Source: Bacillota bacterium
GTDB lineage: Bacteria > Bacillota_I > Bacilli_A > RF39 > UBA660
Assembly: GCA_023460995.1 (NCBI GenBank)
Contig: JAEWOE010000002.1
Span: 77,809-141,808 of the forward strand
Direction: 5' to 3'
Length of the DNA: 64,000 nucleotides
In this document: piece by piece, positions 1 through 54,418 of the stretch
How positions within the stretch are numbered: position 1 is the first letter of the stretch
How the letters are laid out: each line of letters begins with the position of its first letter
Position numbers and translations under genes: made by a program
The notes under the pieces: model-generated
What the model was told of the DNA's origin: nothing
Seen by the model: only the letters and a program-made list of their open reading frames with translations
Databases searched by the model: none

Positions 1-441
1 TATGATATAATGCTAGAACTTGCTATTGAACCTTTCATCCAGGCTGGTTTAGATAAGAATAAGCTGCCAGAAGAAATGCTATCTAATGATGTGATTATAG
101 TTGGCACAAAATTAAGTGATGAAAAGACTACATATGATGGAGATTTTTCTTCTTATGAGTCGTATAAAAAAATAGTTGAATCAAAAAGAAATAGTATTAA
201 GTACCATGCTGAGTTAGATCATTATGGTATTGATTTAGGTAATGGAAACTTATTTGAATGGGCAAAAGATATGAATACAAATGATAAAGATATAGTTTTT
301 GTACTTAATCCAGAACCATTTATAGATGCTGGAGTTAATCCGGAAAAAGTAGATGGCTGGGTATATGCTAAGGTTCCTACAATGAAAGATGGAAAAAAAA
401 TCGAAGTATATAAACTTTTAAAACCATTCAATTTAAAATAA
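1..441 (+). CDS. hypothetical protein, probably 5'-truncated at window edge
   Basis: Reading frame is open back to base 1 with no upstream stop; no recognisable catalytic motif. Confidence 0.35.
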   Translation, partial: YDIMLELAIEPFIQAGLDKNKLPEEMLSNDVIIVGTKLSDEKTTYDGDFSSYESYKKIVESKRNSIKYHAELDHYGIDLGNGNLFEWAKDMNTNDKDIVFVLNPEPFIDAGVNPEKVDGWVYAKVPTMKDGKKIEVYKLLKPFNLK

Positions 442-10529: not shown

Positions 10530-10601
10530 GAGATTAGTAATAATCTCTTTTTTAGTGTCAAAAAGTACAGCCAATTACATATACTAAAATAGGTGATATG
10601 C

Positions 10602-10970
10602 ATGGAAAAAGTCGCGTTATTTAAAGAGTTCGTCAAAAAAAACCCAATGTTATTAAAGTATATTAAAAATAATGAAATGACATGGCAAAAGTTTTACGAA
10701 ATATATGATATGTACGGAGAAGAAGACAGTGCTTGGAAAGATTATTTATCGGTAAAAGAAACTACCGCTGTTGCTGCAACTTCTGGTTTTGCACTTGGTG
10801 ATTTATTATCTTGGTTAAAAAACATTAATTTGGATAGTGTTCAAGAAGGTATGCAGAGTTTACAACGAGTAGTTAGCGTTATGGGCGATGTTTCAAATAA
10901 AAAGAATAATAACAATAATATGGATCCAGAATATAAACCAAGACCATTATACAAGCACTTTGATGACTAA
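10602..10970 (+). CDS. YlbD-like protein (putative coat protein family)
   Basis: Small protein with YlbD-like features; sits upstream of YlbE-like and rsmD genes as in B. subtilis ylbD-ylbE-...-ylbH. AGGTGA RBS then ATG 10602. Confidence 0.4.
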   Translation: MEKVALFKEFVKKNPMLLKYIKNNEMTWQKFYEIYDMYGEEDSAWKDYLSVKETTAVAATSGFALGDLLSWLKNINLDSVQEGMQSLQRVVSVMGDVSNKKNNNNNMDPEYKPRPLYKHFDD

Positions 10971-11191
10971 TGCAGTTAGATACACAGTTTAAATTAAAAC
11001 AAAATCCATATTATATTAATTATTTAAGAAGTAATTCATATTGGTATAAAATTCTTACGAGAGAACCTACAAAGGTAAATGACTTTATAGGAGAATTCAA
11101 AAAATACAATCGCCAAGTTAAGACAAATAAAATATCAGAAACTTTAGAATATATAGAGATGTTAGGAACTATAATGTCAAGTTTAAAATAA
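10970..11191 (+). CDS. YlbE-like small protein
   Basis: Start overlaps upstream stop (TAATG). Small conserved-type protein in ylb synteny; low sequence certainty. Confidence 0.4.
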   Translation: MQLDTQFKLKQNPYYINYLRSNSYWYKILTREPTKVNDFIGEFKKYNRQVKTNKISETLEYIEMLGTIMSSLK

Positions 11192-38065: not shown

Positions 38066-38671
38066 GTGAGCGAATTAGAGAGGATACGTAGGAAAAAGAA
38101 ATCAAGACAAAGTTATACAAATGTGACACCCAAAAAAGGTTGCAAGTATTTTATGTTTTTGACAAAAATTCTTTTAGTTATAATAATAACTTTAATACTT
38201 ATGATTTTAATGAAATGTAATAAATCTTTTAAAGAAAAATTTTATGTTGAGGTATTTGAAAAGAACTTCTCTTTTGCAAGCGTAAATAACTTATATCAAA
38301 AGTATTTAGGATCATTTTTGCCATTTGATGGAATTGCGGATACTGACACCGTTTTTAATGAAAAGTTAACCTATACTGAGGTTAATAAATATTTAGATGG
38401 AGCGAAACTTACTGTAAAAGATTCATATTTAGTACCTTCAGTTCAAAGTGGTTTAGTTGTATATATAGGCGAAAAAGAAGGATACGGTAATACTGTCACT
38501 ATTCAAGGTGTTGATGGAATAGATATATGGTATGGTAATATTGAAAATGTTTCAGTTGAACTATATGATTATGTTGACTTAGGTACATTAATAGGTAATA
38601 CTATAGATACGAATTTATATTTAGTGTATAAAAAAGAAGGAAAAGTGCTTAATTATGAAGATTATCTCTAA
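38066..38671 (+). CDS. SpoIVFA-like membrane protein with degenerate M23/LytM domain
   Basis: Basic N-terminus, TM helix, C-terminal SGLVVYIGEKEGYGNTVTIQGVDGIDIWYGNI LytM-like fold. Directly upstream of an S2P protease gene, as with B. subtilis spoIVFA-spoIVFB. Start uncertain (an alternative ATG at 38153). Confidence 0.5.
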   Translation: MSELERIRRKKKSRQSYTNVTPKKGCKYFMFLTKILLVIIITLILMILMKCNKSFKEKFYVEVFEKNFSFASVNNLYQKYLGSFLPFDGIADTDTVFNEKLTYTEVNKYLDGAKLTVKDSYLVPSVQSGLVVYIGEKEGYGNTVTIQGVDGIDIWYGNIENVSVELYDYVDLGTLIGNTIDTNLYLVYKKEGKVLNYEDYL

Positions 38672-39392
38672 GATTAAGATTCATTTCTTTTTTTATGTAG
38701 TTTTATTTCTTTCAATATTAACTGGTCACTTTAAAACTTTTTTTGCTATGACAATAATAACCATATTCCATGAATTAGGTCATATTATAACAAGCCTTAT
38801 TTTTAAATGGAACATAGATAAAGTAGTAGTTATGCCAATAAGTTTATTAACTATATACAATGTTAAAATTAATACAAAAAAGTATCAAGAATTAATAGTT
38901 ACAATAATGGGGCCAATAGCTCAAATATTTCTTTTTTTCGTTATAAATGATGAAGAAATACTTAGATATAACTTAATGTTGCTTTTATTTAATTTACTTC
39001 CTATATACCCCTTAGATGGTTCAAAAATATTTAAAATAGTATTATATGATTACCTTCCTTTTAAATATGTTGAGAGTATAAATATCTATGTTTCTGTTAT
39101 TACAATAATTTTATTATTATTTGTATCCAAATGGAATTTGATAATTATATTTGTATGTGTACTATTTGTATTTAAGGCAGTAGAGGAGTATAAAAAAAGA
39201 AAATTTATATTTAATAAGTTTTTATTTGAAAGATATTTATATAAGATTAAGTACAAGAAAAATAAAATTATAAATGGACTAAAAAAAGATGATTTTTATA
39301 AAAATTATCATCATAATTTCATTACTAAAAATAAAATAGTTACTGAGGAAGAATTTTTAAGCAAAATGTTTGACAATACAGGGGTTTTATGA
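38655..39392 (+). CDS. site-2 protease (M50 metalloprotease), SpoIVFB-like
   Basis: HELGH zinc motif in TM helix, LLPIYPLDGSKI second motif. Confidence 0.7.
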   Translation: MKIISKIKIHFFFYVVLFLSILTGHFKTFFAMTIITIFHELGHIITSLIFKWNIDKVVVMPISLLTIYNVKINTKKYQELIVTIMGPIAQIFLFFVINDEEILRYNLMLLLFNLLPIYPLDGSKIFKIVLYDYLPFKYVESINIYVSVITIILLLFVSKWNLIIIFVCVLFVFKAVEEYKKRKFIFNKFLFERYLYKIKYKKNKIINGLKKDDFYKNYHHNFITKNKIVTEEEFLSKMFDNTGVL

Positions 39393-39399
39393 TAAAATT

Positions 39400-39490
39400 T
39401 ATAACTGTGTAGAGCCTTACTCTACAACCGCGCAGAGAAGGTTTTAAGCTATATTAGCACCTTAATGGCGAGTCTTAGAGGAACGGAGGA
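39400..39490 (+). ncRNA. ribosomal protein L21 leader (cis-regulatory RNA upstream of rplU)
   Basis: Locally GC-rich structured segment (GTAGAGCCTTACTCTAC, CGCGCAGAG...) in the canonical position upstream of rplU in Firmicutes. Confidence 0.55.
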
Positions 39491-39496
39491 AAAAAA

Positions 39497-39793
39497 ATGA
39501 AAGCTATATTCGAAACAGGTGGAAAACAATATTACGCTGAAGAAGGAACAATATTATATGTTGAAAAGCTAGATGCTGCTGACGGAGAAGAAGTTTCTTT
39601 TGATAGAGTTTTAATGGCTAATGGTGTTGTTGGACGCCCATATGTTAGTGGAACAGTTGTGAAAGCTAAAGTTTTAAAACATGGTAAAAACAAAAAGATT
39701 AAAGTATTTAAATATAATCCAAAGAAAAATTACCATAAAACTCAAGGTCATCGTCAACCTTATACTAAAATTGAAGTTATTAGTGTTAAATAA
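39497..39793 (+). CDS. rplU: 50S ribosomal protein L21
   Basis: [12 protein letters not shown]...[21 protein letters not shown]. Confidence 0.95.
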   Translation: [98 protein letters not shown]

Positions 39794-39795
39794 TA

Positions 39796-40098
39796 ATGAT
39801 TAAAGTAAATGTTATTAGAAAAGCAGCTAAAATTGATAAAATTATTATAAGTGGGCATGCTATGTATGCTGACTATGGTAAAGATATCGTTTGTGCTTCT
39901 GTATCTAGTATTGTTATTACATCAATTAATGCTATATTAAAAATTAATAAAGATGCAATAACTTATCATCAAGGCGATGATTTAGAAATAACTGTAAAGT
40001 TGCATAATGATGTAACTGAAAAATTGCTTGAGAACATGTTAGATTTATTAACTGAATTATCAACGCAGTACAAAAAAAATATAAATATTAATATATAG
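39796..40098 (+). CDS. prp: ribosomal-processing cysteine protease Prp (YsxB)
   Basis: [21 protein letters not shown] motif (His/Cys dyad), located between rplU and rpmA. Confidence 0.85.
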
Positions 40099-40111
40099 GG
40101 AGGTGCCAATA

Positions 40112-40405
40112 GTGAAATTTTTAGAATTAAATATACAATTATTTGCCCACAAAAAAGGACAAGGTTCAACTAGAAATGGTCGTGACTCTATATCTAAAAG
40201 ATTAGGAGCAAAGGCTGCTGACGGTGAATTTGTTACTGGTGGTTCAATATTATATCGTCAACGTGGAACAAAAATTTACCCAGGTACTAACGCAGGAATT
40301 GGATCAGATGATACAGTTTATGCTAAAGTTCCAGGATATGTAAAATTTGAACGTGTTGGAAGAGATAAAAAACAAGTTAGTATTTATCCTGAAAGACAAA
40401 ACTAA
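40112..40405 (+). CDS. rpmA: 50S ribosomal protein L27 with N-terminal Prp-cleaved propeptide
   Basis: [29 protein letters not shown] start 40112 five to six nt after GGGAGG (the track start at 40103 abuts the RBS). Confidence 0.95.
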
Positions 40406-40423
40406 TTTAATATTAAGCAGTAA

Positions 40424-40452
40424 AAGAGTTAATGCATATTAATTCTTTTTTT
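40424..40452 (+). terminator. rho-independent terminator after rpmA
   Basis: AAGAGTTAAT-GCAT-ATTAATTCTT then TTTTT. Confidence 0.55.
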
Positions 40453-40560
40453 GTTTATAATTTTATGTTTATATTTGCAAAATAAACAAATCTTTACATT
40501 TTTTTAAACAACAAATAATATTTGTGATATAATTATTTTAATAGAAGAGGATGTGTTAAG

Positions 40561-41352
40561 ATGAGGGATGTAAACATATTAACTAATAATGGTGTTAATG
40601 TAGCGGCTAGTCTTGAACTTTTTGGGGACATGGCAACATATGATGAAACAGTAGTAGACTTCTTAAATGGAGTAGAAGAAAAGATATCTGGTATTAAAAA
40701 ATATAAAGAAAATGGCGATATGCCTAATTATGCAATATTAGTTCACTCTTTAAAAAGTGATGCTAAATACTTAGGATTAACAGCTTTAGCAGAGATTTCA
40801 TTTCAACACGAAATGGATAGCAAGGCTAACAATATTAATGCTGTATATAATAATTACGATGCTTTAATGGCTGAAGCAAATAGATCTATTGCTTTACTAA
40901 AAGCTTATGTAGGTGATATGTCACCAGTTCCTACTGTAGTAGCGCCTGTCGCAGCTCCAGTAATTAAAGATAAAACAATTTTAGTTGTTGATGATTCAGA
41001 TATTATAAGAACATTTATTCAAAAAATATTTAATGATAATTATCATGTTATGATGGCGCATGATGGCAAAGAAGCAATAGATGTCATTGGTACTAGTGCT
41101 TATGACAATATCGTAGGTGTGTTACTTGATTTAAATATGCCTAATATAAATGGTTTTGAAGTATTGGAGTATTTTAAAGAGAATAATTTATTTTCAAAAA
41201 TTCCAGTATCAATAATAACAGGTGATGATTCTCGCGATTCTATTGATAGAGCGTTTAATTATCCGATAACTGATGTATTACAAAAACCATTTAATGAAAG
41301 AGATGTTAAAAGAATTCTTGATAAGATGTTAGCTTTAAGTAATTTAATATAA
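40561..41352 (+). CDS. Hpt (histidine phosphotransfer) domain fused to response-regulator receiver domain
   Basis: N-terminal Hpt motif ILVHSLKSDAKYLGL. C-terminal REC with VVDDSD, LLDLNMP, and QKPF. Own extended -10 (TGATATAAT) upstream. Confidence 0.75.
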   Translation: MRDVNILTNNGVNVAASLELFGDMATYDETVVDFLNGVEEKISGIKKYKENGDMPNYAILVHSLKSDAKYLGLTALAEISFQHEMDSKANNINAVYNNYDALMAEANRSIALLKAYVGDMSPVPTVVAPVAAPVIKDKTILVVDDSDIIRTFIQKIFNDNYHVMMAHDGKEAIDVIGTSAYDNIVGVLLDLNMPNINGFEVLEYFKENNLFSKIPVSIITGDDSRDSIDRAFNYPITDVLQKPFNERDVKRILDKMLALSNLI

Positions 41353-41363
41353 TATATTTAATA

Positions 41364-41393
41364 AAATCCTTAATTTATTATTAAGGATTTTTT
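41364..41393 (+). terminator. rho-independent terminator
   Basis: AAATCCTTAAT-loop-ATTAAGGATTT then TTT. Confidence 0.65.
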
Positions 41394-41639
41394 ATACAAA
41401 AATTGTGATTGATTTTTAATATCAATATTGTTATAATTATATAGAAAGTATGGTACAAGTTAGCTTATAAATTATTATCACATCATTAGTATCATGTTTT
41501 TTATTGTCTATTTAATCTTGTTATTTACTAATATAGTTTAGGTTCTATTTACATAACTTACTATTTTTATAGTTATAGTAATTATGGTTATACTATTAAC
41601 AAACATTATATTAATAACTCGAAGAAGAAAAGGTGAATT

Positions 41640-42155
41640 ATGGAAATTTTATTATTATGCGTTAAGATATTTTTTGTGAGGATACTAGATGTATCATTAG
41701 GTACAGTAAGAACTATAATAACAGTAAAAGGTAAAAAAGTTATTGCGAGCGCAGTTGGATTTGTTGAAGTTTTGATATGGTTCTCAGTTGTTAAAGAAGC
41801 TTTAAATACTGATATTCAAAGTATATGGATTGCAATTAGTTATGCCTTAGGTTTTGCAACAGGTACTTTTGTTGGTGGATTTTTATCAGATAAATTTATA
41901 AGTGGAAATTTGACAGTACAAGTTATTTTAAGTAATCGTAATGATGAAATAGTAACTTCTATTAGAAAAGCAGGTTATGCAACCACTGTTATAGATGTTA
42001 AGGGACAAGATCAAGACCAACTAAAATATATGCTTCTTATGGAAATTAATAAAAAACGTGTTGATCATTTAAAAAAACTTATTAAAAGTTTAGATGAAAA
42101 AGCATTTATAGTTATTAGTGAAACGAAAACAGTTCAAAATGGGTATTTTAGATAA
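41640..42155 (+). CDS. UPF0316 (DUF2179) membrane protein
   Basis: VRILDVSLGTVRTIITVKGKK N-terminal signature of UPF0316 family. Confidence 0.65.
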   Translation: MEILLLCVKIFFVRILDVSLGTVRTIITVKGKKVIASAVGFVEVLIWFSVVKEALNTDIQSIWIAISYALGFATGTFVGGFLSDKFISGNLTVQVILSNRNDEIVTSIRKAGYATTVIDVKGQDQDQLKYMLLMEINKKRVDHLKKLIKSLDEKAFIVISETKTVQNGYFR

Positions 42156-42198
42156 TATCCATTTTGTTTTATATAGTAAAATAGAAAGGAAGAACGAA

Positions 42199-43422
42199 AT
42201 GATAGATAATTACAATAAATATGCTAATTTATTACTGTCTAAATGTTTAAACATAAAAGAAGGAGAACCTTTACTTATTCAGGCACCTATAGAAAATATT
42301 GATTTTGTAAGAATAGTTGCTAAAAGAGCTTATGAACTAGGAGTTAATGATATATATTTTGATTTTGATGATGATATTTTAAAGCATGATCAACTCTTAA
42401 GTTTAGACGTAGAAAGTTTAAAAAAAAGTAGGTTTTGGAATAAAAAAATATTTGATGAGTATGCAAATAAAGGGGCTGCTTTTTTGATGCTTTATGGTGA
42501 TAATCCAGACTTAACAAATGATATAGATCCTATTAAAGTAGGTGAAGTAGCCAAAGTAAATAGACTATCTAGACCCATTTATAAAGCAAAACAGTCTATA
42601 AATGAGGTGTCTTGGTGCATTGCTTCAGTAGCAACCGAAGCATGGGCAAGAAAAATATTTCCAAATAGTATAAATCCTAAATCAGAACTTTGGAATAAAA
42701 TATTTGAAATGTGCCTTATTAATAGTGAAAATCCATTAATAGAATGGGATAAAAAAGTTGCTATTAATAGTAAAAGGTGTGAATTATTAAATAATAATGT
42801 TTTTAAAGAACTACATTATACCAATAGCTTAGGAACTGATTTATTAATAAAACTATCAGATGATGCCATATGGTGTGGTGGTGATGAAGAAACTGTTGAT
42901 GGAAGAAAAGTAATTATGAATATGCCAACAGAAGAAGTATTTACAACTCCAATAATGACAGGAACAAGTGGTGTTGTCTATAGTTCAAAGCCTCTTGTAT
43001 ATAGTGGAGCACTAATTGAAAATTTTATGCTAAAATTTGAAGATGGAAAAGTTGTTGGTTTTGAGGCCGAAAAAGGTTATGAAGTACTTAAAAGTATAAT
43101 TGAAGGTGATGAACATTCATGTATGTTAGGTGAGGTTGCTTTAGTAGATTATAATTCCCCTATATCTAATTCAGGATTAATATTTTATGAAACTTTATTT
43201 GATGAAAATGCATCATGTCATTTAGCTTTTGGTAATGGGTTTCCAACCTGCATAAAAAATACTAGTGGTAAAAGCCGTGAAGACTTAATTAAGATGGGAA
43301 TTAATCAGTCTAGTGTTCATGTTGATTTCATGATAGGCACTAAAGACTTAACAATAAAAGGTATTAATAAAGATAATGAAGAAGTGCTTATTTTTGATAA
43401 TGGAAACTTTATTTTAAGATAA
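42199..43422 (+). CDS. M29-family aminopeptidase (AmpS/PepS-like)
   Basis: PTEEVFTTP, FDENASCHLAFG, HVDFMIG conserved M29 motifs. AAAGGAAG RBS then ATG 42199 (the track start 42118 is upstream). Confidence 0.85.
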   Translation: MIDNYNKYANLLLSKCLNIKEGEPLLIQAPIENIDFVRIVAKRAYELGVNDIYFDFDDDILKHDQLLSLDVESLKKSRFWNKKIFDEYANKGAAFLMLYGDNPDLTNDIDPIKVGEVAKVNRLSRPIYKAKQSINEVSWCIASVATEAWARKIFPNSINPKSELWNKIFEMCLINSENPLIEWDKKVAINSKRCELLNNNVFKELHYTNSLGTDLLIKLSDDAIWCGGDEETVDGRKVIMNMPTEEVFTTPIMTGTSGVVYSSKPLVYSGALIENFMLKFEDGKVVGFEAEKGYEVLKSIIEGDEHSCMLGEVALVDYNSPISNSGLIFYETLFDENASCHLAFGNGFPTCIKNTSGKSREDLIKMGINQSSVHVDFMIGTKDLTIKGINKDNEEVLIFDNGNFILR

Positions 43423-43509: not shown

Positions 43510-44784
43510 ATGTTCGTAGATGAAGTTACGCTTGAGTTACAGGCCGGTGATGGCGGTAATGGTTGTCTAGCATTTAGACGAGAAAAATTTGTAGAAATGG
43601 GTGGACCATTTGGTGGTAGTGGTGGTAAAGGATCAAACATCATTTTTAAAGTTGATGAAGGATTAAATACACTACTTGATTTAAGATATAAAAGAGTTAT
43701 AAAAGGCAATAAAGGTGAAAACGGAGAAGGTAAAGGGAAACATGGAGCAGCTGCAACAGATGTTGTTGTTAAAGTTCCCCAAGGTACTATAATTACTGAT
43801 TATGAATCAGGTTTAGTTATAGCGGATCTTACTAATAAAAATGAAGAGGTTATAGCTGCTTATGGTGGCCGTGGTGGTAGAGGAAACATTGCTTTCGCAA
43901 CTCGTGCTAATCCAGCGCCTGCATATGCTGAAAATGGTGAACCTGGTGAGTATAGAAAAATAAAAGTAGAACTTAAACTACTTGCTGATGTTGGTCTTGT
44001 TGGACTTCCTAGTGTAGGAAAATCAACTTTTATTTCTAAAATTAGTGCCGCTAAACCAAAAATTGCAGCTTATCATTTTACGACATTATCACCTAATTTA
44101 GGTGTTGTAAGAACAATTGATAATAGAAGTTTTGTTGTTGCAGATTTACCTGGATTAATAAAAGGAGCTTCTTTAGGAGAAGGTCTTGGTGATAAATTCT
44201 TAAGACATATTGAAAGAACAAGAGTTATTGCCCATATTATAGATATGAGTGGTTTTGAAGGTAGAGATCCTTATGATGACTATTTAGTTATTAATAAAGA
44301 ACTTGATGATTTTAGTAAAAAGATATTAAAGAAACCACAAGTAGTAATAGCTAATAAAATGGATATAGACGGTGCTGAATTAAATCTTGAAATTTTTCGT
44401 AAGAAAGTAAAAGATGTTGAAGTATATCCTATATCAGCAGCTACTGGTAAAGGAATTGATGAAGTTCTTATAAAGATAGCTGATATGCTTGATACTATTG
44501 AAAGACAACCATTATATGAAGAAGATGAAATAGAAAGTCATGTTCTATATAAGTTTGAAAGAGAAAAACCATTTACAATTAATCATGAAGGACGTACTTG
44601 GGTTGTTCGTGGTAAAGAAGTAGAAAAAATGCTTCGTATGACAAGCTTTAGAACAGATGAAGCTGCTAATAGATTTGCTAATAAATTACGCAAAATGGGT
44701 ATTGATGCTAAGTTAAAAGAACTTGGCGCTGTTGAAGGCGATACAATAAGAATATTAGATTTAGAATTTGAATACAAGGACTAA
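43510..44784 (+). CDS. obg: GTPase Obg
   Basis: Gly-rich Obg fold (GDGGNGCLAFRREKF), G1 GLPSVGKST, G3 DLPG, C-terminal OCT domain. Confidence 0.95.
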   Translation: MFVDEVTLELQAGDGGNGCLAFRREKFVEMGGPFGGSGGKGSNIIFKVDEGLNTLLDLRYKRVIKGNKGENGEGKGKHGAAATDVVVKVPQGTIITDYESGLVIADLTNKNEEVIAAYGGRGGRGNIAFATRANPAPAYAENGEPGEYRKIKVELKLLADVGLVGLPSVGKSTFISKISAAKPKIAAYHFTTLSPNLGVVRTIDNRSFVVADLPGLIKGASLGEGLGDKFLRHIERTRVIAHIIDMSGFEGRDPYDDYLVINKELDDFSKKILKKPQVVIANKMDIDGAELNLEIFRKKVKDVEVYPISAATGKGIDEVLIKIADMLDTIERQPLYEEDEIESHVLYKFEREKPFTINHEGRTWVVRGKEVEKMLRMTSFRTDEAANRFANKLRKMGIDAKLKELGAVEGDTIRILDLEFEYKD

Positions 44785-45996: not shown

Positions 45997-46191
45997 ATGA
46001 ATAATAAAGGACAAGCTTTAGTAGAGTATTTATTAATAATTGCTTTAATTAGTGTTATTGTAGTAAGTCTAGTTAAGTTACTAGGAGGATACTTACAAGA
46101 TTCTGTTACCAAGTCATCTTGTAATTTAATTGACAAAGTTTATGTAGCAGGGGAAAAACCAGGCGAAGGTTACTGCGCAGAATCAGAATAG
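45997..46191 (+). CDS. flp: Flp/Fap-family type IVb (Tad) pilin
   Basis: 64-aa protein, MNNKG/QALVEYLLIIALISVIVV Flp motif (G-x4-EY) then hydrophobic helix. Confidence 0.7.
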   Translation: MNNKGQALVEYLLIIALISVIVVSLVKLLGGYLQDSVTKSSCNLIDKVYVAGEKPGEGYCAESE

Positions 46192-46201
46192 AATAGTTTT
46201 T

Positions 46202-46236
46202 AAAAGAAGAAATATTTATGTACTTCTTCTTTTTTA
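46202..46236 (+). terminator. intra-operon hairpin/terminator immediately after flp pilin gene
   Basis: AAAAGAAGAA-loop-TTCTTCTTTT then TTT. Confidence 0.55.
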
Positions 46237-46292
46237 TTGTTTAATTAGTCGTTTTTTGGTATAATCTTATTAAGATATGCGAGTGTGATTAT

Positions 46293-46667
46293 ATGATAAA
46301 AGATATAAGGAATAGCAAAGGGCAAGCTTTAGTAGAATTTGTTCTTGTAATGCCTATTTTTATCTTTATTATTATGGCTATGATAGATTTAGGAAATATT
46401 ATATATAAAAAGTATAATCTAGAAAATACACTTGATACGGTAGTAGAATTATATAGGCAAGGAGAAAGTCAAAAGATGGCAGCCTATGCATCAGTTGAAA
46501 ATATTGATTTGGATATTTCTTCTGTTAGTACTGATTTAACTAAAGTATCTGTTACGAAAACTATAAATATAATAACACCAGGATTAAATAATATACTCGG
46601 CAAAGATTATACCTTATCAGTAGATAGAACTATTTTTTTTGAAAAGGAAACGTCTATAAATGAATGA
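46293..46667 (+). CDS. TadE-like pseudopilin
   Basis: KGQALVEFVLVMPIFIFIIMAMIDLGNII TadE N-terminal signature. Confidence 0.65.
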   Translation: MIKDIRNSKGQALVEFVLVMPIFIFIIMAMIDLGNIIYKKYNLENTLDTVVELYRQGESQKMAAYASVENIDLDISSVSTDLTKVSVTKTINIITPGLNNILGKDYTLSVDRTIFFEKETSINE

Positions 46668-47052
46668 TAGAAAAGGACAAGTTTTAGTTGCCTTTGTCTT
46701 ATTAATACCAGTAATAATAATGCTGCTGGCGTTAATAGTAGATGTTGGTTTTCTATATGTAGAAAAAAGAAATACTGATAATGTGGTAAGGGATATAACA
46801 AATTATGGGCTTGATAACTTAAATTTAGAAAAAGATATATTACAAGGAAAGATAACTGAGTTAATTAATGCTAATTTAGACGATATACAAAATCTTAATA
46901 TAAATATTGATACTAACAGTGTTGAAATAGATATAACAAGAAATAAGCAAAGTATATTTTCAAATGTATATAAAAAAGCAAGTTATAAAATAACTTCAAA
47001 TTATATTGGTAACATTAATAATTCTGTAAATGATGTAAGGAAGGAGTCATAG
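46660..47052 (+). CDS. TadE/TadF-like pseudopilin
   Basis: KGQVLVAFVLLIPVIIMLLALIVDVG; overlaps the previous gene. Confidence 0.6.
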   Translation: MNDRKGQVLVAFVLLIPVIIMLLALIVDVGFLYVEKRNTDNVVRDITNYGLDNLNLEKDILQGKITELINANLDDIQNLNINIDTNSVEIDITRNKQSIFSNVYKKASYKITSNYIGNINNSVNDVRKES

Positions 47053-47053
47053 T

Positions 47054-47881
47054 ATGGCATTAAAAAAGGCTAAAATATTAACAATAACATCTGTAAGTGG
47101 AGGAACTGGAAAGACAACTACTGCTCTTTGCGTAGCAGGAACTTACTCAACTCTTGGAAAAAAAGTTTTAGTAATAGATTTAGATTTATATACAGGGACT
47201 ATTGCTGCTGCTTTAAACTTAGATGTTAAATCAGACATGTTTATCTTAGTTAATGATTTAAATAATAATAAATTTAAAGGATTAGATGAATATGTAACAA
47301 GTTACAGCGAAAATATTGATATTTTACCAGCTACTAAAGATCCTAGATATGCTAATAAAATTAATGCTAGTTATTTACAACTGGTTTTTGATAAATACTG
47401 TAATAAATATGATTTGATTGTAGTTGATACAGCTGATGATTTTTCACCTTTTAATTTAGTTACTTTCGATTATAGTGACTTAATTATATACGTTATTAAT
47501 AACGATGCAGTAAATTTAAAAAACATGCGTACTATGGTGTCAATATTTAAAGATATGGGTCTTACTAAATATAGAATATTCCTTAATGAGGCAAATAGTA
47601 TTCATAAAAATTATTTCACAAAAAATGATATGAAGAATATTATGAAAGCTAATATAGATTATACTGTTACAAACAGATTCTTTATTAAAAATATAGATAA
47701 ATATTTCTTAGATGGAGTAATTTTGACTTTAGATAAAACAATTAGATCAAAGTATAAAAAAGATATTAAAGAGTTTGAAGAAATTGCTAAGGTTATTATT
47801 GGTGAAACTGAGAAGAATGATAAAAAAGTTGAAAAAGTAAGAGTTTCTAATGACAAAGTAATGAAAGGGGAAAATGAATAG
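47054..47881 (+). CDS. TadZ/CpaE-like ParA/MinD-family ATPase (pilus assembly localisation factor)
   Basis: ILTITSVSGGTGKTTTALCVA degenerate deviant Walker A, VIDLDL, DLIVVDTADD Walker B. Confidence 0.7.
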   Translation: MALKKAKILTITSVSGGTGKTTTALCVAGTYSTLGKKVLVIDLDLYTGTIAAALNLDVKSDMFILVNDLNNNKFKGLDEYVTSYSENIDILPATKDPRYANKINASYLQLVFDKYCNKYDLIVVDTADDFSPFNLVTFDYSDLIIYVINNDAVNLKNMRTMVSIFKDMGLTKYRIFLNEANSIHKNYFTKNDMKNIMKANIDYTVTNRFFIKNIDKYFLDGVILTLDKTIRSKYKKDIKEFEEIAKVIIGETEKNDKKVEKVRVSNDKVMKGENE

Positions 47882-49205
47882 TATGAAGAGTTTTACAGAA
47901 GAATTCCAAGTAAGTATTAAAAAGAATAATTATGTTGAAACTTCCGATTACGAAACATTTCCTAACAAAGTATTACTTGACGAACTTAGAAATAAAATTA
48001 TTCAAAATTTAATTGATAATCGTACCTCATCAAGTGGTGCTCTAGATACTTTTATCAAAAGACAAATAGATGCTACTATTGAAGGATATGATTTAACAGG
48101 AGTTGAGATATCTTATATCTATAACATGATAGATAATGAGATTAATGGATGTGGACCATTAACGGAACTTATGGAAGATCCTAATATAACTGAAATAATG
48201 GTTAATGGAATAGACCAAATTTATATTGAAATTGATGGACGAGTTAGTAAAGATGATAGTGTTTCTTTTATAAATGATGATCATATTATAAGAACAATAC
48301 AGAGAATGATTCAGCCTATCGGTAGAACAATTGATGCTGCTAATCCTATGGTTGACGCAAGACTTTCTGATGGTTCTAGACTTAATGCTATTATAGCGCC
48401 ACTTGCTATTAATGGACCAACTATTACTATTCGTAAGTTTAAGGAAGATTTAGTTTCTATAGATGATTTTTTAAGAACAGGAACATTAACTCCTTATATG
48501 GCTAGATTCTTGGAAGCATGTGTTAAAGCTAAATTAAATATTATTATATGTGGTGGTACTGGTTCTGGTAAAACAACACTTCTTAATGTTTTATCCTCAT
48601 TTATCGGGCAAGATGAACGTATTGTAACAATAGAGGATGCAGCTGAACTTAGATTAAAACAACCACATGTTGTTTCGCTAGAAACAAGACTTGCAAATTA
48701 TGAAGGACAAGGTGCTATAACAATTAGGGATTTAGTTATTAATTCCCTTCGTATGAGACCTGATCGTATTATAGTTGGCGAGTGTCGTGGTGGTGAGGCT
48801 TTTGATATGCTTCAGGCCATGAATACAGGACATTCAGGTAGTTTAACAACTATGCATGCTAATGGGCCTATTGACACTTTAAATAGGCTAGAAACATTAA
48901 TTTTAATGTCTGGTATGGAAATACCAGTTAAAGCTATTCGTGAATATATTGAGAAAGCAATAAATGTCGTGGTTCAAACTGAAAGATTTTCTGATGGACG
49001 TAGAAGAGTAGTGGATATTTCTGAGGTTGTTGGATTTAAAGATGATATGATTGAATTAAAACAAATATTTGGATTTAAGCAAACAGGAAGACTTGATAAC
49101 GGTGATGTTGACGGTGAGTTTATTCAATCTAAACATGTGCCAAAAGTATATGAAACAATGAAAGCCTTTGGTGTAGACAGTATAAAAGTTATTTTTGAAA
49201 AATAG
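47874..49205 (+). CDS. tadA: TadA/CpaF-family secretion ATPase
   Basis: IIICGGTGSGKTTLLNVL Walker A, ERIVTIEDAAEL, GHSGSLTTMHAN His-box. Confidence 0.9.
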   Translation: MNSMKSFTEEFQVSIKKNNYVETSDYETFPNKVLLDELRNKIIQNLIDNRTSSSGALDTFIKRQIDATIEGYDLTGVEISYIYNMIDNEINGCGPLTELMEDPNITEIMVNGIDQIYIEIDGRVSKDDSVSFINDDHIIRTIQRMIQPIGRTIDAANPMVDARLSDGSRLNAIIAPLAINGPTITIRKFKEDLVSIDDFLRTGTLTPYMARFLEACVKAKLNIIICGGTGSGKTTLLNVLSSFIGQDERIVTIEDAAELRLKQPHVVSLETRLANYEGQGAITIRDLVINSLRMRPDRIIVGECRGGEAFDMLQAMNTGHSGSLTTMHANGPIDTLNRLETLILMSGMEIPVKAIREYIEKAINVVVQTERFSDGRRRVVDISEVVGFKDDMIELKQIFGFKQTGRLDNGDVDGEFIQSKHVPKVYETMKAFGVDSIKVIFEK

Positions 49206-49213
49206 GTGATAGT

Positions 49214-50707
49214 ATGATGAATAATAATGGTTTTAGTCTGTATGGAACTTTGACTAATCAGGATATAAATCTTACCTTTACACCTCCTATAAACTTATAT
49301 TCTTTTGAATATACGGTATATAAGAACGGTGGTATATATATAAAAGGAACAGGTTCTAATAACCCAATTGGTTTTAATTTTACTGCTACAGGTACATACA
49401 CTGTCATAGTTACAATGACAGATATTACAGGACATAATACTGTAACTAGTCCTCAATATATTGTTGATAAAGAGAGTCCTATTATTACAGTTTCAAAAGA
49501 TAATATTCAAATAGAAGAAGGAAAAAGCTTAAATGCACTTTCAAATATAGTAGTAACTGATAATTATGATAAAGATTTAAGTAAAGAAGTAACAACAAAT
49601 TATGATGAACTAGATTTTGCTACTATAGGTGAAAAAAAGTTGATATATTCTGTAAGTGATAAAGCAGGCAATAATACTTCTAAAACCATCTATGTTAATG
49701 TTGTAAACGGTGTAGATCCTTATGTAGTATTTATTCAGTGTGGGATAGTAATAGGTTTAATTATATTTATAATTGCTATATTAAAATACAGACATTCAGT
49801 TAAAATAGAAAACCGCATTGCTAAATTTTCTGTAGAATCACTTGAGGATGACCAAATTTCATTATTTGATAAGCTATCACTAGTATTGACTAAATATATT
49901 AAAAAGGGAAGTAATTTATTTAATAAATCGGCTTTTTTAAAAAACTACTCAAAACATTTTGAAAAATATACTTCATTATATAATAGTGAATTAACTAGTA
50001 TGGACCTTGTTTCTATAAAGATTACATTTGGTTTGATTTTCGTGCTTGTTTGTATCTTATCACTGGCAATTAAATCAAGAGTATTACCAGTATATGAATG
50101 GATAATACCTTTCTTTGCCGGGATATTTATAGTTGATATATATTATATAATAAAGTATAAATTTTATCGTAGTAAGATTGAGAATGACTTATTGCAGGCA
50201 ATTATTATAATGAATAATGCTTTTAAATCTGGACGAAGTATTAGTCAAGCTATTGACCTTGTAACTACTGAACTAGAAGGACCTATAGCGAAAGAATTCA
50301 AGAAAATATATGTAGAATTATCCTTTGGTTTAGATTTAAATACTGTATTTAAGAGGTTTGCTGATAGAGTTAATGTTGAAGAAGCATCATATTTAACAGC
50401 GTCACTTACTATTTTAAATAAAACAGGTGGTAACATAGTAAAAGTATTTGATGCTATAGAAAAGTCATTATTTAGTAAAAAGAAATTAAAATTAGAACTA
50501 AATGCATTAACAAGTTCTTCAAAAGTAATAAAGAATATTTTATCAATAGTTCCACTAATTTTCTTTCTTTTAATTAGTTTTATTGATTCAAACTATTTTA
50601 CTGTTTTCTTTAATACACAAATAGGTATTATATTATTTATTCTTATATTAATACTTTATGTATCATATATATTAGTAGTAAATAAAATTATGAAAGTTAG
50701 GATGTGA
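49214..50707 (+). CDS. tadB: TadB-like platform protein (T2SS-F domain) with about 170-aa N-terminal Ig-like (DUF5011-type) domain
   Basis: N-terminal PIITVSKDNIQIEEGKS...VTDNYDKDL...IGEKKLIYSVSDKAGN Ig-like repeat like those in the 15039 hydrolase. TM helix. T2SSF-like LLQAIIIMNNAFKSGRSISQAI...LEGPIAKEF. Confidence 0.75.
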   Translation: MMNNNGFSLYGTLTNQDINLTFTPPINLYSFEYTVYKNGGIYIKGTGSNNPIGFNFTATGTYTVIVTMTDITGHNTVTSPQYIVDKESPIITVSKDNIQIEEGKSLNALSNIVVTDNYDKDLSKEVTTNYDELDFATIGEKKLIYSVSDKAGNNTSKTIYVNVVNGVDPYVVFIQCGIVIGLIIFIIAILKYRHSVKIENRIAKFSVESLEDDQISLFDKLSLVLTKYIKKGSNLFNKSAFLKNYSKHFEKYTSLYNSELTSMDLVSIKITFGLIFVLVCILSLAIKSRVLPVYEWIIPFFAGIFIVDIYYIIKYKFYRSKIENDLLQAIIIMNNAFKSGRSISQAIDLVTTELEGPIAKEFKKIYVELSFGLDLNTVFKRFADRVNVEEASYLTASLTILNKTGGNIVKVFDAIEKSLFSKKKLKLELNALTSSSKVIKNILSIVPLIFFLLISFIDSNYFTVFFNTQIGIILFILILILYVSYILVVNKIMKVRM

Positions 50708-50711
50708 TAAA

Positions 50712-51488
50712 GTGAGTAAGACTAGAATTAATTATAATTACAATGAGGAAAAGATAAGAAACTTACGTGAAAGAAATAAGAAAACAGCAGTAGAATTTGA
50801 TAACAGTATTGTTAATAAAGTTTTTAGAAAAAGTGATATAAAATTAGTAGCAAATAGAATAGCTATGATGGGAAGAACTAAACTTACTGTTAGCTCTTTC
50901 TTAAATTTTAGAATTATGTTAAGCATGTGTGTATTTGTCTTGACACTAACTTTTTCAAAATATAGTTACGTTTTAGCGCCACTTTCAGCAATTGCTGTTT
51001 ATTATGGTAGTTATTATGTTCTAATTTCTAATCCTATAAAAAAAAGAATTTCAAAGTTAGATCATGAAGCACTAAATTTTTTTGAAATTCTTACCCTTAC
51101 TTTAGAATCAGGACGTAATTTAGAAAATTCACTTGAAATAACAGTAGACAATGTTGAATCTGAATTATCGGATGAATTTAGAAAAACTCTATTAGAAATT
51201 AAATTTGGTAAATCACTAATTGAATCATTAGATGGGATGAAACAAAGAATACCATCTGAAACAATTAATAATATTATATTAAATATGACTCAAACAAGCA
51301 TCTTTGGTAGTAATATTTTGGATACTATGAATAATCAAATAGATTTTTTAAGAGATAAACAATTATTAGAAGTAAAAGAAAGAATGAATAGATTACCCAA
51401 TAGAATTAGTATTATATCGGTGTTATTTATTGTTCCACTTATATTACTTTTGGTTTTAGGACCTTTTCTAGTAAACTTTTTGGGTTGA
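50712..51488 (+). CDS. tadC: TadC-like platform protein (T2SS-F domain)
   Basis: FEILTLTLESGRNLENSLEITV...FGKSLIESL T2SSF motifs, 3 TM helices. Confidence 0.7.
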   Translation: MSKTRINYNYNEEKIRNLRERNKKTAVEFDNSIVNKVFRKSDIKLVANRIAMMGRTKLTVSSFLNFRIMLSMCVFVLTLTFSKYSYVLAPLSAIAVYYGSYYVLISNPIKKRISKLDHEALNFFEILTLTLESGRNLENSLEITVDNVESELSDEFRKTLLEIKFGKSLIESLDGMKQRIPSETINNIILNMTQTSIFGSNILDTMNNQIDFLRDKQLLEVKERMNRLPNRISIISVLFIVPLILLLVLGPFLVNFLG

Positions 51489-51541
51489 AATTACAAAATT
51501 TAGTGTATAATATGTATGAATGTTAAGAAAGAAGGATACGA

Positions 51542-52849
51542 ATGAAATATTATTTAGTTGGAATAAAAGGGGCTGGAATGAGTGCGCTGGCACTTATTTT
51601 AAATGATTTAGGTTATGAAGTAATTGGATATGATGATGATAAAAATCATGAATTTACTGAAGACAAATTAGACGAACGTGGTATTAAAATTTTTACTGAC
51701 GAAAATAATATTATTGATAAAAATACTATAGTTATAAGAAGTACGGCTATAAAAGAAAGTCATAGAGAGATAGTAAAAGCTAAATCACTAGATTTAAAAA
51801 TATATGAATATAATGAGATGCTTGGTAAAGTAGCAAATATGTTTGAACTAATTACTGTAGCGGGCTGCCATGGTAAAACAACAACTACTTCTTTATTGGC
51901 ACATGTTCTTAAAAATATGGGTGGTTGTAATTATTTAATAGGTGATGGTACTGGTTATGCTAGTAAAGAAAACAAGAAATTTGTTATAGAAGCATGTGAA
52001 TACTATAGACATTTTCTTGTTTATGAGCCAAATTACGCAATAATAACTAATATTGAACTTGATCATGTCGATTATTTTAAGGATATGCAGGACGTTATTG
52101 ATGCTTATTCAGAGTACGCTAATAATGCAGAAAAAATGGTTATTGCTTGTGGTGATGATCCTTATACGAGAATGTTAGAACTTAATAAACCGATATTCTA
52201 TTATGGAATTGATGAAGATAATGATATAGTAGCAAAGAATATTGAGTACACTTCTGATGGTGTAGAATTCGATGTCTTTGTAGAAGAGAACTATTATGGA
52301 CATTTTGATTTACCATTCTATGGTAAACATATGGTACTTAATACTTTAGCGGTTATTAGTGTTTGTTATTATGAAAGAATGGATGCAAAAGAAGTTTCTA
52401 AAAATTTAAAAACTTTTGGTGGAGCTGAAAGAAGATTTGAAGAAACTATTATAGGTGATACTATCTTAGTTGATGATTATGCACATCATCCAACAGAAGT
52501 TAAAGCTGTTATTAAAGCAGCAAGACAAAAGTATCCTAATAAGAAAGTTGTTGCGGTTTTTCAACCTCATACTTTTTCTAGAACACAAGCTTTCGCTGAA
52601 GATTTAATAAAAGTACTTAATTTAGCTGACAAAGCCTTTGTTTTAGACATATTCCCATCACGTGAAAAACAAGAAGATTTTCCAGGAATAAATTCTGATA
52701 TTATTGTTGGAAAATTAAATAATGGAGAATTAATAACTGATGAAAGTTGGGATAAATTAAAGGAATATAAAGGTGCGATTGTACTTTTCCTTAGTCCAAA
52801 ACAAATTCAAAATTTAATGGAAAAATTTACGGAATACTTAAATTGTTAA
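51542..52849 (+). CDS. murC: UDP-N-acetylmuramate--L-alanine ligase
   Basis: GIKGAGMSALALIL, ITVAGCHGKTTTTSLLAHVL, NIELDHVDYF, GGAERRFE, DDYAHHPTE Mur ligase motifs. Confidence 0.85.
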   Translation: MKYYLVGIKGAGMSALALILNDLGYEVIGYDDDKNHEFTEDKLDERGIKIFTDENNIIDKNTIVIRSTAIKESHREIVKAKSLDLKIYEYNEMLGKVANMFELITVAGCHGKTTTTSLLAHVLKNMGGCNYLIGDGTGYASKENKKFVIEACEYYRHFLVYEPNYAIITNIELDHVDYFKDMQDVIDAYSEYANNAEKMVIACGDDPYTRMLELNKPIFYYGIDEDNDIVAKNIEYTSDGVEFDVFVEENYYGHFDLPFYGKHMVLNTLAVISVCYYERMDAKEVSKNLKTFGGAERRFEETIIGDTILVDDYAHHPTEVKAVIKAARQKYPNKKVVAVFQPHTFSRTQAFAEDLIKVLNLADKAFVLDIFPSREKQEDFPGINSDIIVGKLNNGELITDESWDKLKEYKGAIVLFLSPKQIQNLMEKFTEYLNC

Positions 52850-52913
52850 GTATTCTTTTATTTACTTAAAATTAATAATATTGTATAATAATTATAGGAT
52901 GATAGGTGAATGT

Positions 52914-54002
52914 ATGATGTATGTTTTTAGAAACGAAAAAGGATTTACATTAGCGGAACTGTTAGGTGTTATTACAATTTTGGCGATAATAGCATTAATA
53001 ACAGTACCGCTTGTTAATAAATATGTATTAAGTAGTAGGCAAAAAGCCTATGATGTAGAAATTACTACATTAAAAAAAGCTGCACAACAGTGGTTTACAA
53101 GAAATTCTACTTCCGTTGTTTTCGATGGAAACAGTTTTTATGCACTAGATTTAGAAGAATTGAAACAGAGTGAGTTTTTATCTGATCAACCAATATATAA
53201 TCCATTAAACCCTGATGAAGAAATAACCGGATGTGTTATGATTAAAAAAAATGATAGTATTTATAGTTATGAATATAGTGCAACATGCACTGGCACATTT
53301 AATGTATATGTTAATGGTACAGCAGTATATTTTAATCCTGTAACTGGAGCAAAATGTACAGTAGGTGAAGCTGTGAGCACAACCGGAACAAAAACAGGAT
53401 GCATGAAATGGTATACATTTAATGATAGTTCAGAAAAAGATACTGTTAATTTAATATTAGATCATAATACTACGGCATTAGTAGCATGGAATTCTACTGG
53501 AAGTAATATAAGTGGTCCAACAAATGGGCTTACGCAACTTCAAACTGACACTAGTGCTTGGGTAGGAGTACCAACAAGAACAGATAGTTATAGTGTAAGT
53601 AATGGAACAGCTACATATACTATAAACTATAATACTTATAAAGCACGACTAATAACGGCAGCAGAAATTGCGACAATAACAGGAAACAGTAGTTTTAATG
53701 AGTCAAATAGTGGAGCACTTACTTGGTTTTATTTAGATAGTAATAATCAAACTCAAACAGCCACTTCAACTGGAACTAGTAATTATGATTGGTTATTTGA
53801 TTATACATACTACTGTACAGATTATGGGTGTAGTATTGCTGATTCAAGTACAAGTGGTTACTGGACAGCCACATCTGTTCCATTTTCTTCAAGAAGTACT
53901 TGGATTGTACGTCGTAACGGGTACTTGCATAACCTTGAAGTAGAAAATACAATTAACTACGGTATTCGCCCAGTTATAACTATTTCAAAATCTAGTCTTT
54001 AA
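52914..54002 (+). CDS. prepilin-type (type IVa-like) pseudopilin/minor pilin, Ser/Thr-rich
   Basis: MMYVFRNEKG/FTLAELLGVITILAIIALI class III signal (Gly-1, Glu+5). AGGTGA RBS; track ORF start 52881 is upstream. Confidence 0.65.
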   Translation: MMYVFRNEKGFTLAELLGVITILAIIALITVPLVNKYVLSSRQKAYDVEITTLKKAAQQWFTRNSTSVVFDGNSFYALDLEELKQSEFLSDQPIYNPLNPDEEITGCVMIKKNDSIYSYEYSATCTGTFNVYVNGTAVYFNPVTGAKCTVGEAVSTTGTKTGCMKWYTFNDSSEKDTVNLILDHNTTALVAWNSTGSNISGPTNGLTQLQTDTSAWVGVPTRTDSYSVSNGTATYTINYNTYKARLITAAEIATITGNSSFNESNSGALTWFYLDSNNQTQTATSTGTSNYDWLFDYTYYCTDYGCSIADSSTSGYWTATSVPFSSRSTWIVRRNGYLHNLEVENTINYGIRPVITISKSSL

Positions 54003-54028
54003 AAAAAGCAATTAATGAGGTGTTTAGT

Positions 54029-54418
54029 ATGAAAAATAAGGGATTTACATTAACTGAGTTAATAGCGGTAATTGTCCTACTTGGAATCATTGCTTTAATT
54101 GCTATTCCAGTTATAAATGGAACAATAGTTAATTCAAAAAATAAGGCATATAATACACAAGTAAGTACAATTGAAAACACAGCCAAAAAGTGGGGAGTAG
54201 AGAATACGGCATTACTACCTAATGATGAAAATGAGTGTAAAGTTTCAATCGTAGAGTTAATAGCGCAAGGATTTATAGAAGATGATGAAATTATAGATCC
54301 ACGAGATGATTCTAAAATGAATGGTAGTATTGAAGTAAGTTATTCTGTCACTAGTAAAACATATCATTATGTTTATAATGAAACAGTTGATGTGGCTGTA
54401 CCTAATTGTATAAAATAA
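54029..54418 (+). CDS. type IV pilin-like protein (PilA/ComGC-like)
   Basis: MKNKG/FTLTELIAVIVLLGIIALIAIPV prepilin N-terminus, about 125 aa. GAGGTG RBS. Confidence 0.75.
   Translation: MKNKGFTLTELIAVIVLLGIIALIAIPVINGTIVNSKNKAYNTQVSTIENTAKKWGVENTALLPNDENECKVSIVELIAQGFIEDDEIIDPRDDSKMNGSIEVSYSVTSKTYHYVYNETVDVAVPNCIK

Follow-up and report, generated by a model that had tools for sequence, protein, structure and literature searches.

The window, by which we mean the whole 64-kb stretch of DNA analysed here (27% G+C), carries directly downstream of rpmA a gene for a protein in which an N-terminal Hpt domain is fused to a C-terminal CheY-like receiver (REC), hereafter Hpt-REC (Table 1). Hpt-REC is separated from obg by two genes, one for a DUF5698/DUF2179 membrane protein and one for an M29 aminopeptidase, and the overall order, radC-mreC-mreD-?-M23-M50-rplU-prp-rpmA-(Hpt-REC)-...-obg, mirrors that of B. 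subtilis; the rest of the window consists of housekeeping genes and a Tad pilus locus. The preliminary description had assigned the gene to the spo0B slot of the rplU-prp-rpmA-obg operon. The location after rpmA agrees with this slot and the rpmA-obg placement recurs in other species (see below), but two additional genes precede obg in the window.

Table 1. Features of the Hpt-REC locus (positions in the window unless residues or another locus are given)
Feature	Position	Strand	Details
L21 leader	39416-39485	+	Rfam RF00559, 51 bits
rplU	39497-39793	+	
prp	39796-40098	+	
rpmA	40103-40405	+	
Candidate intrinsic terminator after rpmA	40412-40462	+	12-bp hairpin and U-run (40421-40452), -14.8 kcal/mol, z = -4.8
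Sigma-70-like promoter candidate	40505-40533	+	TAAACA-17-TGnTATAAT, extended -10 TG; consensus match only
Shine-Dalgarno sequence	about 40548	+	GAGGA, read from sequence
Hpt-REC gene	40561-41352	+	open ORF, 263 aa
Hpt four-helix bundle	residues about 24-117		phospho-His H62
Disordered linker in Hpt-REC protein	residues 121-133		13 residues
CheY-like receiver of Hpt-REC protein	residues 138-262		D144/D145, phospho-Asp D190, T220, K242
Candidate intrinsic terminator after Hpt-REC gene	41356-41400	+	hairpin and U-run (41363-41395), -11 kcal/mol, z = -4.7
DUF5698/DUF2179 membrane protein gene	41640-42155	+	
M29 aminopeptidase gene	42118-43422	+	
obg	43510-44784	+	
rel near the kinase/Hpt-REC block	L010 2584-5013; L211 3533-4978		also in L019 and L068

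Candidate intrinsic terminators flank Hpt-REC on both sides, the one after rpmA having been missed by a consensus terminator scan because its stem is AT-rich, and a promoter candidate is located 28 nt before the ATG, so that the terminator/promoter pair previously ascribed to the gene can be recognized. Owing to these terminators, Hpt-REC is probably transcribed apart from rplU-prp-rpmA, a unit headed by an L21 leader of its own, and its proposed membership of that operon is not upheld; the gene looks monocistronic.

The L21 leader is the sole Rfam hit at the gathering threshold across the 64 kb, and an Rfam E-value scan of positions 40380-41680 returned only a chance snoRNA hit. An unusually long intergenic leader of 288 nt (41353-41639) precedes the DUF5698/DUF2179 gene; it contains a promoter-like site (TTGATT-17-TGnTATAAT, 41409-41437), matches no Rfam family and may represent an unrecognized cis-regulatory RNA. 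Read as its longest possible ORF, from a GTG at 42118, the M29 aminopeptidase gene encodes 434 aa, and its first codons overlap both the last part of the DUF2179 gene and a 13-bp hairpin (42135-42166). Public gene calls give a later start and a protein of 407 aa; the true start is probably at about 42199. Two sets of the sporulation-associated neighbours mentioned in the preliminary description are present: an M23 peptidase and M50 metalloprotease pair (38066-39392) sits directly before rplU, placed like spoIVFA/spoIVFB of B. subtilis, and homologues of YlbD_coat and YlbE, which are sporulation-associated by name only, follow tsf (10593-11190). However, NCBIfam does not recognize the M50 protein (245 aa) as SpoIVFB, and its match to Pfam M50 is only partial. 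Core spo genes are absent from the window.

Domain architecture, fold and conservation

The receiver half of Hpt-REC is readily recognized, with a Pfam Response_reg (PF00072) match over residues 140-252 (E = 6.5e-21, 75 bits against a cut-off of 30.2). In the AlphaFold2 model of the full-length protein (pLDDT 87.2), it adopts a (beta/alpha)5 fold, five strands alternating with helices, and its top Foldseek hits are Spo0F, RR468 and CheY, with target TM-scores of 0.8-0.9. Foldseek with the full-length model returned receiver hits only, and the Hpt half was then modelled on its own. On the window protein, the Pfam Hpt model (PF01627) scores 21.1 bits over residues 31-85, below the curated cut-off of 24.6. 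The Hpt assignment is settled by other lines of evidence. First, a precomputed PF01627 hit is present on most orthologues, and an Hpt-REC paralogue in locus L009 reaches 31.5 bits. Second, a family profile of the N-terminal 120 residues searched against the PDB retrieved CheA-P1 (E = 1.3e-5) as well as HptB, LuxU and plant and fungal HPt proteins, with H62 aligned with the phospho-His of CheA and HptB. Third, the AlphaFold2 model contains four helices (residues 24-50, 54-71, 74-88 and 92-117) that form the monomeric four-helix bundle characteristic of HPt domains, including an H-x-x-K motif with the phospho-accepting His. The N-terminal domain is therefore an Hpt domain, and the 263-aa Hpt-receiver fusion described earlier is confirmed, as are all of the motifs quoted for it (ILVHSLKSDAKYLGL, VVDDSD, LLDLNMP and QKPF). 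In line with the assignment, the N-terminal 118 residues also align with the C-termini of many large proteins; those sampled turned out to be hybrid kinases that end in an Hpt domain.

The residues expected to take part in phosphotransfer are strictly conserved. H62, D144, D145, D190 and K242 are invariant in 83 of 83 orthologues, each from a different species, position 220 is either T or S across the same set, and even in a more divergent set H62 is missing from only 4 of 30 sequences; the conservation of the Hpt histidine, which the preliminary description had named as a check on its reading, is complete among the 83 orthologues. The dN/dS values of the gene relative to the two closest species (loci L007 and L008) are 0.057 and 0.064. 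Invariant phospho-sites and a dN/dS of about 0.06 argue that both halves are functional phosphotransfer domains under strong constraint and, judged by its sequence, Hpt-REC is a genuine single-polypeptide phosphotransfer module.

The arrangement of the two domains sets Hpt-REC apart from characterized systems. Known HPt domains, such as P. aeruginosa HptB (7C1I), the Shewanella hybrid-kinase domain (3MYF), ArcB (1A0B), Ypd1 (1C03), LuxU and plant AHPs, stand alone or are located C-terminally to a kinase, whereas the Hpt domain described here is fused N-terminally to a terminal receiver; it carries the motif HSLKSD in place of the usual HxLKGS and is only 11%-18% identical in sequence to solved HPts. 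Like the single-domain receivers CheY, Spo0F, DivK and CpdR, the receiver half lacks an effector domain and has the canonical DD/D/T/K residues but, unlike them, it is joined to its phosphodonor in a single polypeptide. The only result of a literature search for fusions of this kind was an unrelated paper on an HptB structure.

Close homologues (55%-96% identity) were detected in at least 532 GTDB species by a scan of genome contigs built from 10 closer sequences. All of these species are represented by uncultured gut MAGs labelled Bacilli, Tenericutes, Mollicutes or Firmicutes. One homologue carrier, Candidatus Faecisoma merdavium, belongs to the GTDB order RF39, family CAG-822 (PMC8035907), and the host clade, part of which is placed by this one named member, appears to be the order RF39.

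A hybrid-kinase partner and the putative phosphorelay

Gene context was compared across loci from 79 GTDB species, 35 of which have at least 9 kb on both sides. In 51 of the 79 loci a hybrid histidine kinase (HK) gene is located immediately upstream of Hpt-REC, adjacency being defined as a gap of less than 700 nt; most of the 51 gaps measure about 20-100 nt. The adjacent kinase is about 610 aa long and consists of a polytopic N-terminus followed by HisKA-HATPase_c-Response_reg. In at least 29 of these 51 loci the kinase gene is preceded by one for an AMP-binding enzyme (AMPb), and genes for a PlsC-type acyltransferase, HAD or DegV proteins are sometimes found near the block. Furthermore, two family proteins of about 931 aa (P0274 and P0289) have the architecture HK-REC-REC-Hpt, with a C-terminal Hpt that is 46% identical to that of the window protein; these fusions provide a Rosetta-stone link between the kinase and the Hpt of Hpt-REC.

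Two loci show variations of the block. In L009 (8279-15383), the arrangement HK-HptREC-HK-HK-HptREC, that is, three tandem kinases and two Hpt-REC paralogues, directly precedes DUF2179-M29-obg, a local expansion of the module. In L006 (6128-7967), the hybrid kinase is divided between two ORFs of 441 aa and 186 aa, whereas the near-identical copy in L211 is intact (611 aa); the split probably reflects a frameshift in the assembly.

Kinase and Hpt-REC need not be paired in cis, as 28 of the 79 loci have no adjacent kinase. The lineage of the window (the window itself, L007 and L008) belongs to this group, whereas its sister lineages L009, L010 and L016 have an adjacent kinase. A tblastn search of the 64-kb window with kinase, AMP-binding, receiver and B. 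subtilis Spo0A queries recovered only the Hpt-REC gene itself. Nevertheless, a partner kinase, which the preliminary description had called for, appears to exist in the same genome. A family kinase, P0310 (779 aa, HisKA-HATPase-REC-REC with 6-7 hydrophobic TM segments within residues 4-217 and without Hpt), is encoded after a DegV and an AMP-binding gene on a contig of 514,713 bp (LEMO22-1 scaffold_4), which is also the size of the longest contig recorded for the window protein (P0001), a match in size rather than in sequence overlap. Consequently, the P0310 partner kinase appears to sit at a remote site on the window organism's own 515-kb contig.

The adjacency of the kinase and the existence of fusion relatives point to an H1-D1-H2-D2 relay in which the window protein would supply H2 and D2. 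We consider it likely that Hpt-REC is the terminal H2-D2 module of a hybrid-kinase His-Asp-His-Asp phosphorelay, and one of a new form, in which the HPt is fused to the terminal receiver. The order of the phosphotransfer steps follows from domain logic. The polytopic membrane hybrid kinase, whose sensor of 6-7 TM helices is nearly devoid of loops and precedes HisKA-HATPase and one or two REC domains, would autophosphorylate on its H-box His and pass the phosphoryl group to the Asp of its own receiver. From there it would be accepted by His62 of the monomeric Hpt bundle and handed on to Asp190 of the receiver tethered by the flexible 13-residue linker, and possibly to other receivers too. Since this receiver has no effector domain, it must presumably work through protein-protein contacts, like CheY, DivK and Spo0F, or serve as a phosphate sink or gate. 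The H1-D1-H2-D2 logic is shared with the unorthodox kinases ArcB, BvgS, TorS and BarA, which the HK-REC-REC-Hpt proteins P0274 and P0289 resemble, but in Hpt-REC the H2 domain is separate from the kinase and joined instead to D2, which lacks a DNA-binding output domain.

The input of the relay would most likely be a membrane or lipid signal, as suggested by the intramembrane sensor and by the conserved acyl-activating enzyme, PlsC-type acyltransferase and DegV neighbours. In the lineage of the window, the kinase and its AMP-binding-enzyme partner would have become separated to another site, leaving Hpt-REC as a monocistronic gene after rpmA. The two-component parts from which Hpt-REC is built are textbook and the protein itself is unsurprising. 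Its interest lies rather in the fact that a very large, wholly uncultured gut clade shares one conserved hybrid-kinase/Hpt-REC relay, and that this relay is found repeatedly in the rpmA-obg interval, which marks spo0B across Firmicutes.

The rpmA-obg interval and the relation to Spo0B

The L21-L27-Spo0B-Obg neighbourhood has been used as a diagnostic of Spo0B across Firmicutes (Davidson et al.; PMC6136694). This is where Hpt-REC is found in the window, separated from obg by two extra genes, and in about 23 of the 79 species loci, which have rpmA and/or obg within 10 kb of it. Among the 35 loci flanked by 9 kb or more in both directions, rpmA or obg is found within 10 kb in 9 and neither in 26. 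Roughly a quarter of the species have Hpt-REC between these two genes, either by itself or as a block with the kinase. In eight species obg starts less than 500 nt (71-471 nt) downstream of the matched region, the exact position of spo0B. Orthologues thus do occur at the obg locus, as the preliminary description had anticipated. The chance of a random gene lying so near rpmA or obg, estimated from a 20-kb target and assumed genome sizes of 1.5-2 Mb, is about 1%; measured against this estimate, the observed frequency indicates that the association is real.

Cases linked to rpmA-obg are distributed among deep branches of a neighbour-joining tree, which was built from the Hpt-REC protein itself and is not a species tree. 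Because the linked species are scattered in this way, the placement rpmA...AMP-binding enzyme-hybrid HK-Hpt-REC...obg is probably ancestral for the RF39-like clade and has been retained. The typical linked order is rpmA-(0-4 variable genes, sometimes including rel)-AMPb-HK-HptREC-(0-2 genes)-obg, and in L021 and L036 it is shortened to rpmA-HptREC-obg, with one additional ORF after rpmA in L021. Inspected by eye, the cargo of the interval includes genes for a NUDIX hydrolase, GrpB, a phosphotransferase, an acyltransferase and membrane proteins. In other lineages Hpt-REC adjoins rplS or spoU-rimM-trmD. A gene for a RelA/SpoT-family (p)ppGpp synthetase-hydrolase recurs in or near the block (rpmA...rel...HK-HptREC...obg; Table 1), a placement that unites stringent-response, Obg and phosphorelay genes.

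The recurrence of this location raises the alternative proposed in the preliminary description, namely that Hpt-REC functionally replaces Spo0B. The receiver of the kinase would then act as Spo0F and the Hpt as Spo0B, the phosphorylated Hpt would pass its phosphoryl group to Spo0A, and the fused receiver would be a sink or gate. Spo0B (1IXM/1F51) is a dimeric protein with a DHp-like helical hairpin and a degenerate ATP-binding-like domain. Hpt-REC, built of a monomeric HPt bundle and a receiver, does not have the Spo0B-type fold. In sequence searches the protein showed no match to SPOB_a (PF14689) or SPOB_ab (PF14682) at E ≤ 0.01, and no Spo0B chain was among the PDB hits of the N-terminal 120-residue profile at E ≤ 10. 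With no sequence or fold match, the two proteins would be analogous at most, sharing the rpmA-obg slot, a His-to-Asp phosphotransfer role and a place in a four-step relay. Any replacement would accordingly be non-orthologous.

The positional evidence for such a replacement is better than the preliminary description could know. In addition to the scattered rpmA-obg-linked lineages and the eight species in which obg follows closely, no Spo0B-like ORF was recognized by eye among the other genes of the interval in 11 loci, and the one interval ORF scanned against Pfam, of 253 aa in L010, had no hit. The order RF39 has been predicted to form spores (PMC10868615); entries for spo0A, spo0B and spo0F are absent from the supplement of that study, and the HiFi RF39 paper (PMC9606305) contains nothing on sporulation. 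Precedents for unusual routes to sporulation exist as well: Turicibacter, a gut spore-former outside Bacillus/Clostridium, sporulates without Spo0F, Spo0B and KinA-E (PMC13492147), and in C. beijerinckii and A. thermocellus hybrid HK-receiver proteins have an effect on sporulation (PMC11210211).

The Spo0A C-terminal domain was not detected in any of the 20-kb loci around Hpt-REC, and an AT-biased Spo0A motif scan of metagenomes did not match the window organism. The scan did yield L124, from a metagenome shared with L004, and L124 used as a query led to a case of co-occurrence. On the 1.05-Mb contig CBFFOQ010017277.1, Spo0A is encoded at about 0.96 Mb (L219) and the HK/Hpt-REC block at about 0.33 Mb (L211), in the order SpoIVB-Rel-AMPb-acyltransferase-HK-HptREC. 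The relay and Spo0A coexist, therefore, in at least one member of the clade, and an identical contig size (487,445 bp) for the kinase P0340 and the Spo0A locus L217 suggests a second case. The module also stands beside spoIVB and rel in both L006 and L211.

The genes spoIVB and spo0A, which are adjacent in Bacillus, as in the B. subtilis gene order, are far apart in this relative. On CBFFOQ010017277.1 spoIVB adjoins rel and AMPb-acyltransferase-HK-HptREC rather than spo0A (L211 1522-12652; L219 6001-6771), and spo0A is located about 600 kb from spoIVB, after pgk-...-tpiA.

Against the replacement, the relay already terminates in its own receiver, the adjacent hybrid kinase completing it without Spo0A or Spo0F. 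Most of the well-flanked loci (26 of 35) are located away from rpmA and obg, the rpmA-obg interval carries miscellaneous cargo in the clade, and the conserved partner genes (AMP-binding enzyme, acyltransferase, DegV) are lipid-related rather than spo genes. Moreover, the window gene is insulated by terminators and not co-transcribed with obg, and homology to Spo0B is lacking. Because the relay is self-contained, its location variable and its conserved partners lipid-related, the Spo0B stand-in is outweighed at present and is a minority hypothesis that we regard as rather unlikely. In its fuller form, it would hold that RF39-like gut Bacilli, keeping spo0A and many spo genes while lacking recognized Spo0F, Spo0B and KinA-E, rebuilt the sporulation phosphorelay at the old chromosomal site and displaced Spo0B in situ, with the kinase (H1-D1) and the HPt (H2) feeding Spo0A and the fused receiver competing as a sink, a scenario to which we give little credence.

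Nevertheless, with spo0A on the contig of the relay in at least one member and without a recognized Spo0B-like gene in the interval, the Hpt-REC module offers a concrete candidate for Spo0A activation in spore-formers outside Bacillus/Clostridium, to be compared with Turicibacter. If the sporulation link is false, the self-contained relay favoured here would still serve to mark an ancestral gene order and would be a candidate system for sensing membrane or lipid signals in reduced-genome bacteria.

Two further readings fare worse. Hpt-REC might regulate the neighbouring Flp/Tad pilus locus in the manner of CheY/PilG-like single-domain receivers, given that the Tad locus starts about 4.6 kb downstream in the window and is also present in L007, L008, L037 and L038. 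However, all loci with Tad genes also have obg nearby, and the roughly 55 loci with the module elsewhere lack them; this reading is highly improbable and was rejected, as the Tad locus tracks obg rather than Hpt-REC. The view that Hpt-REC is a decaying, non-functional remnant orphaned after rpmA when its kinase moved away, to which a window devoid of any kinase, other receiver or AMP-binding gene could lend some colour, is likewise highly improbable; it was rejected on the dN/dS of about 0.06 inside the very lineage without an adjacent kinase and is made still less credible by the intact catalytic residues, the gene's own promoter-like site, Shine-Dalgarno sequence and terminator, and the family kinase P0310 on a contig of the same size as the longest of the window protein.

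The Flp/Tad-type pilus locus itself (45997-54418) is complete, and the gut Bacilli genome that carries it is small and AT-rich. The locus encodes a Flp-like pilin, two TadE proteins, a TadZ/CpaE ATPase, TadA, TadB/C and, after a Mur ligase, two N-methyl pseudopilins, and it follows obg in the window and in the four other loci in which it was found.
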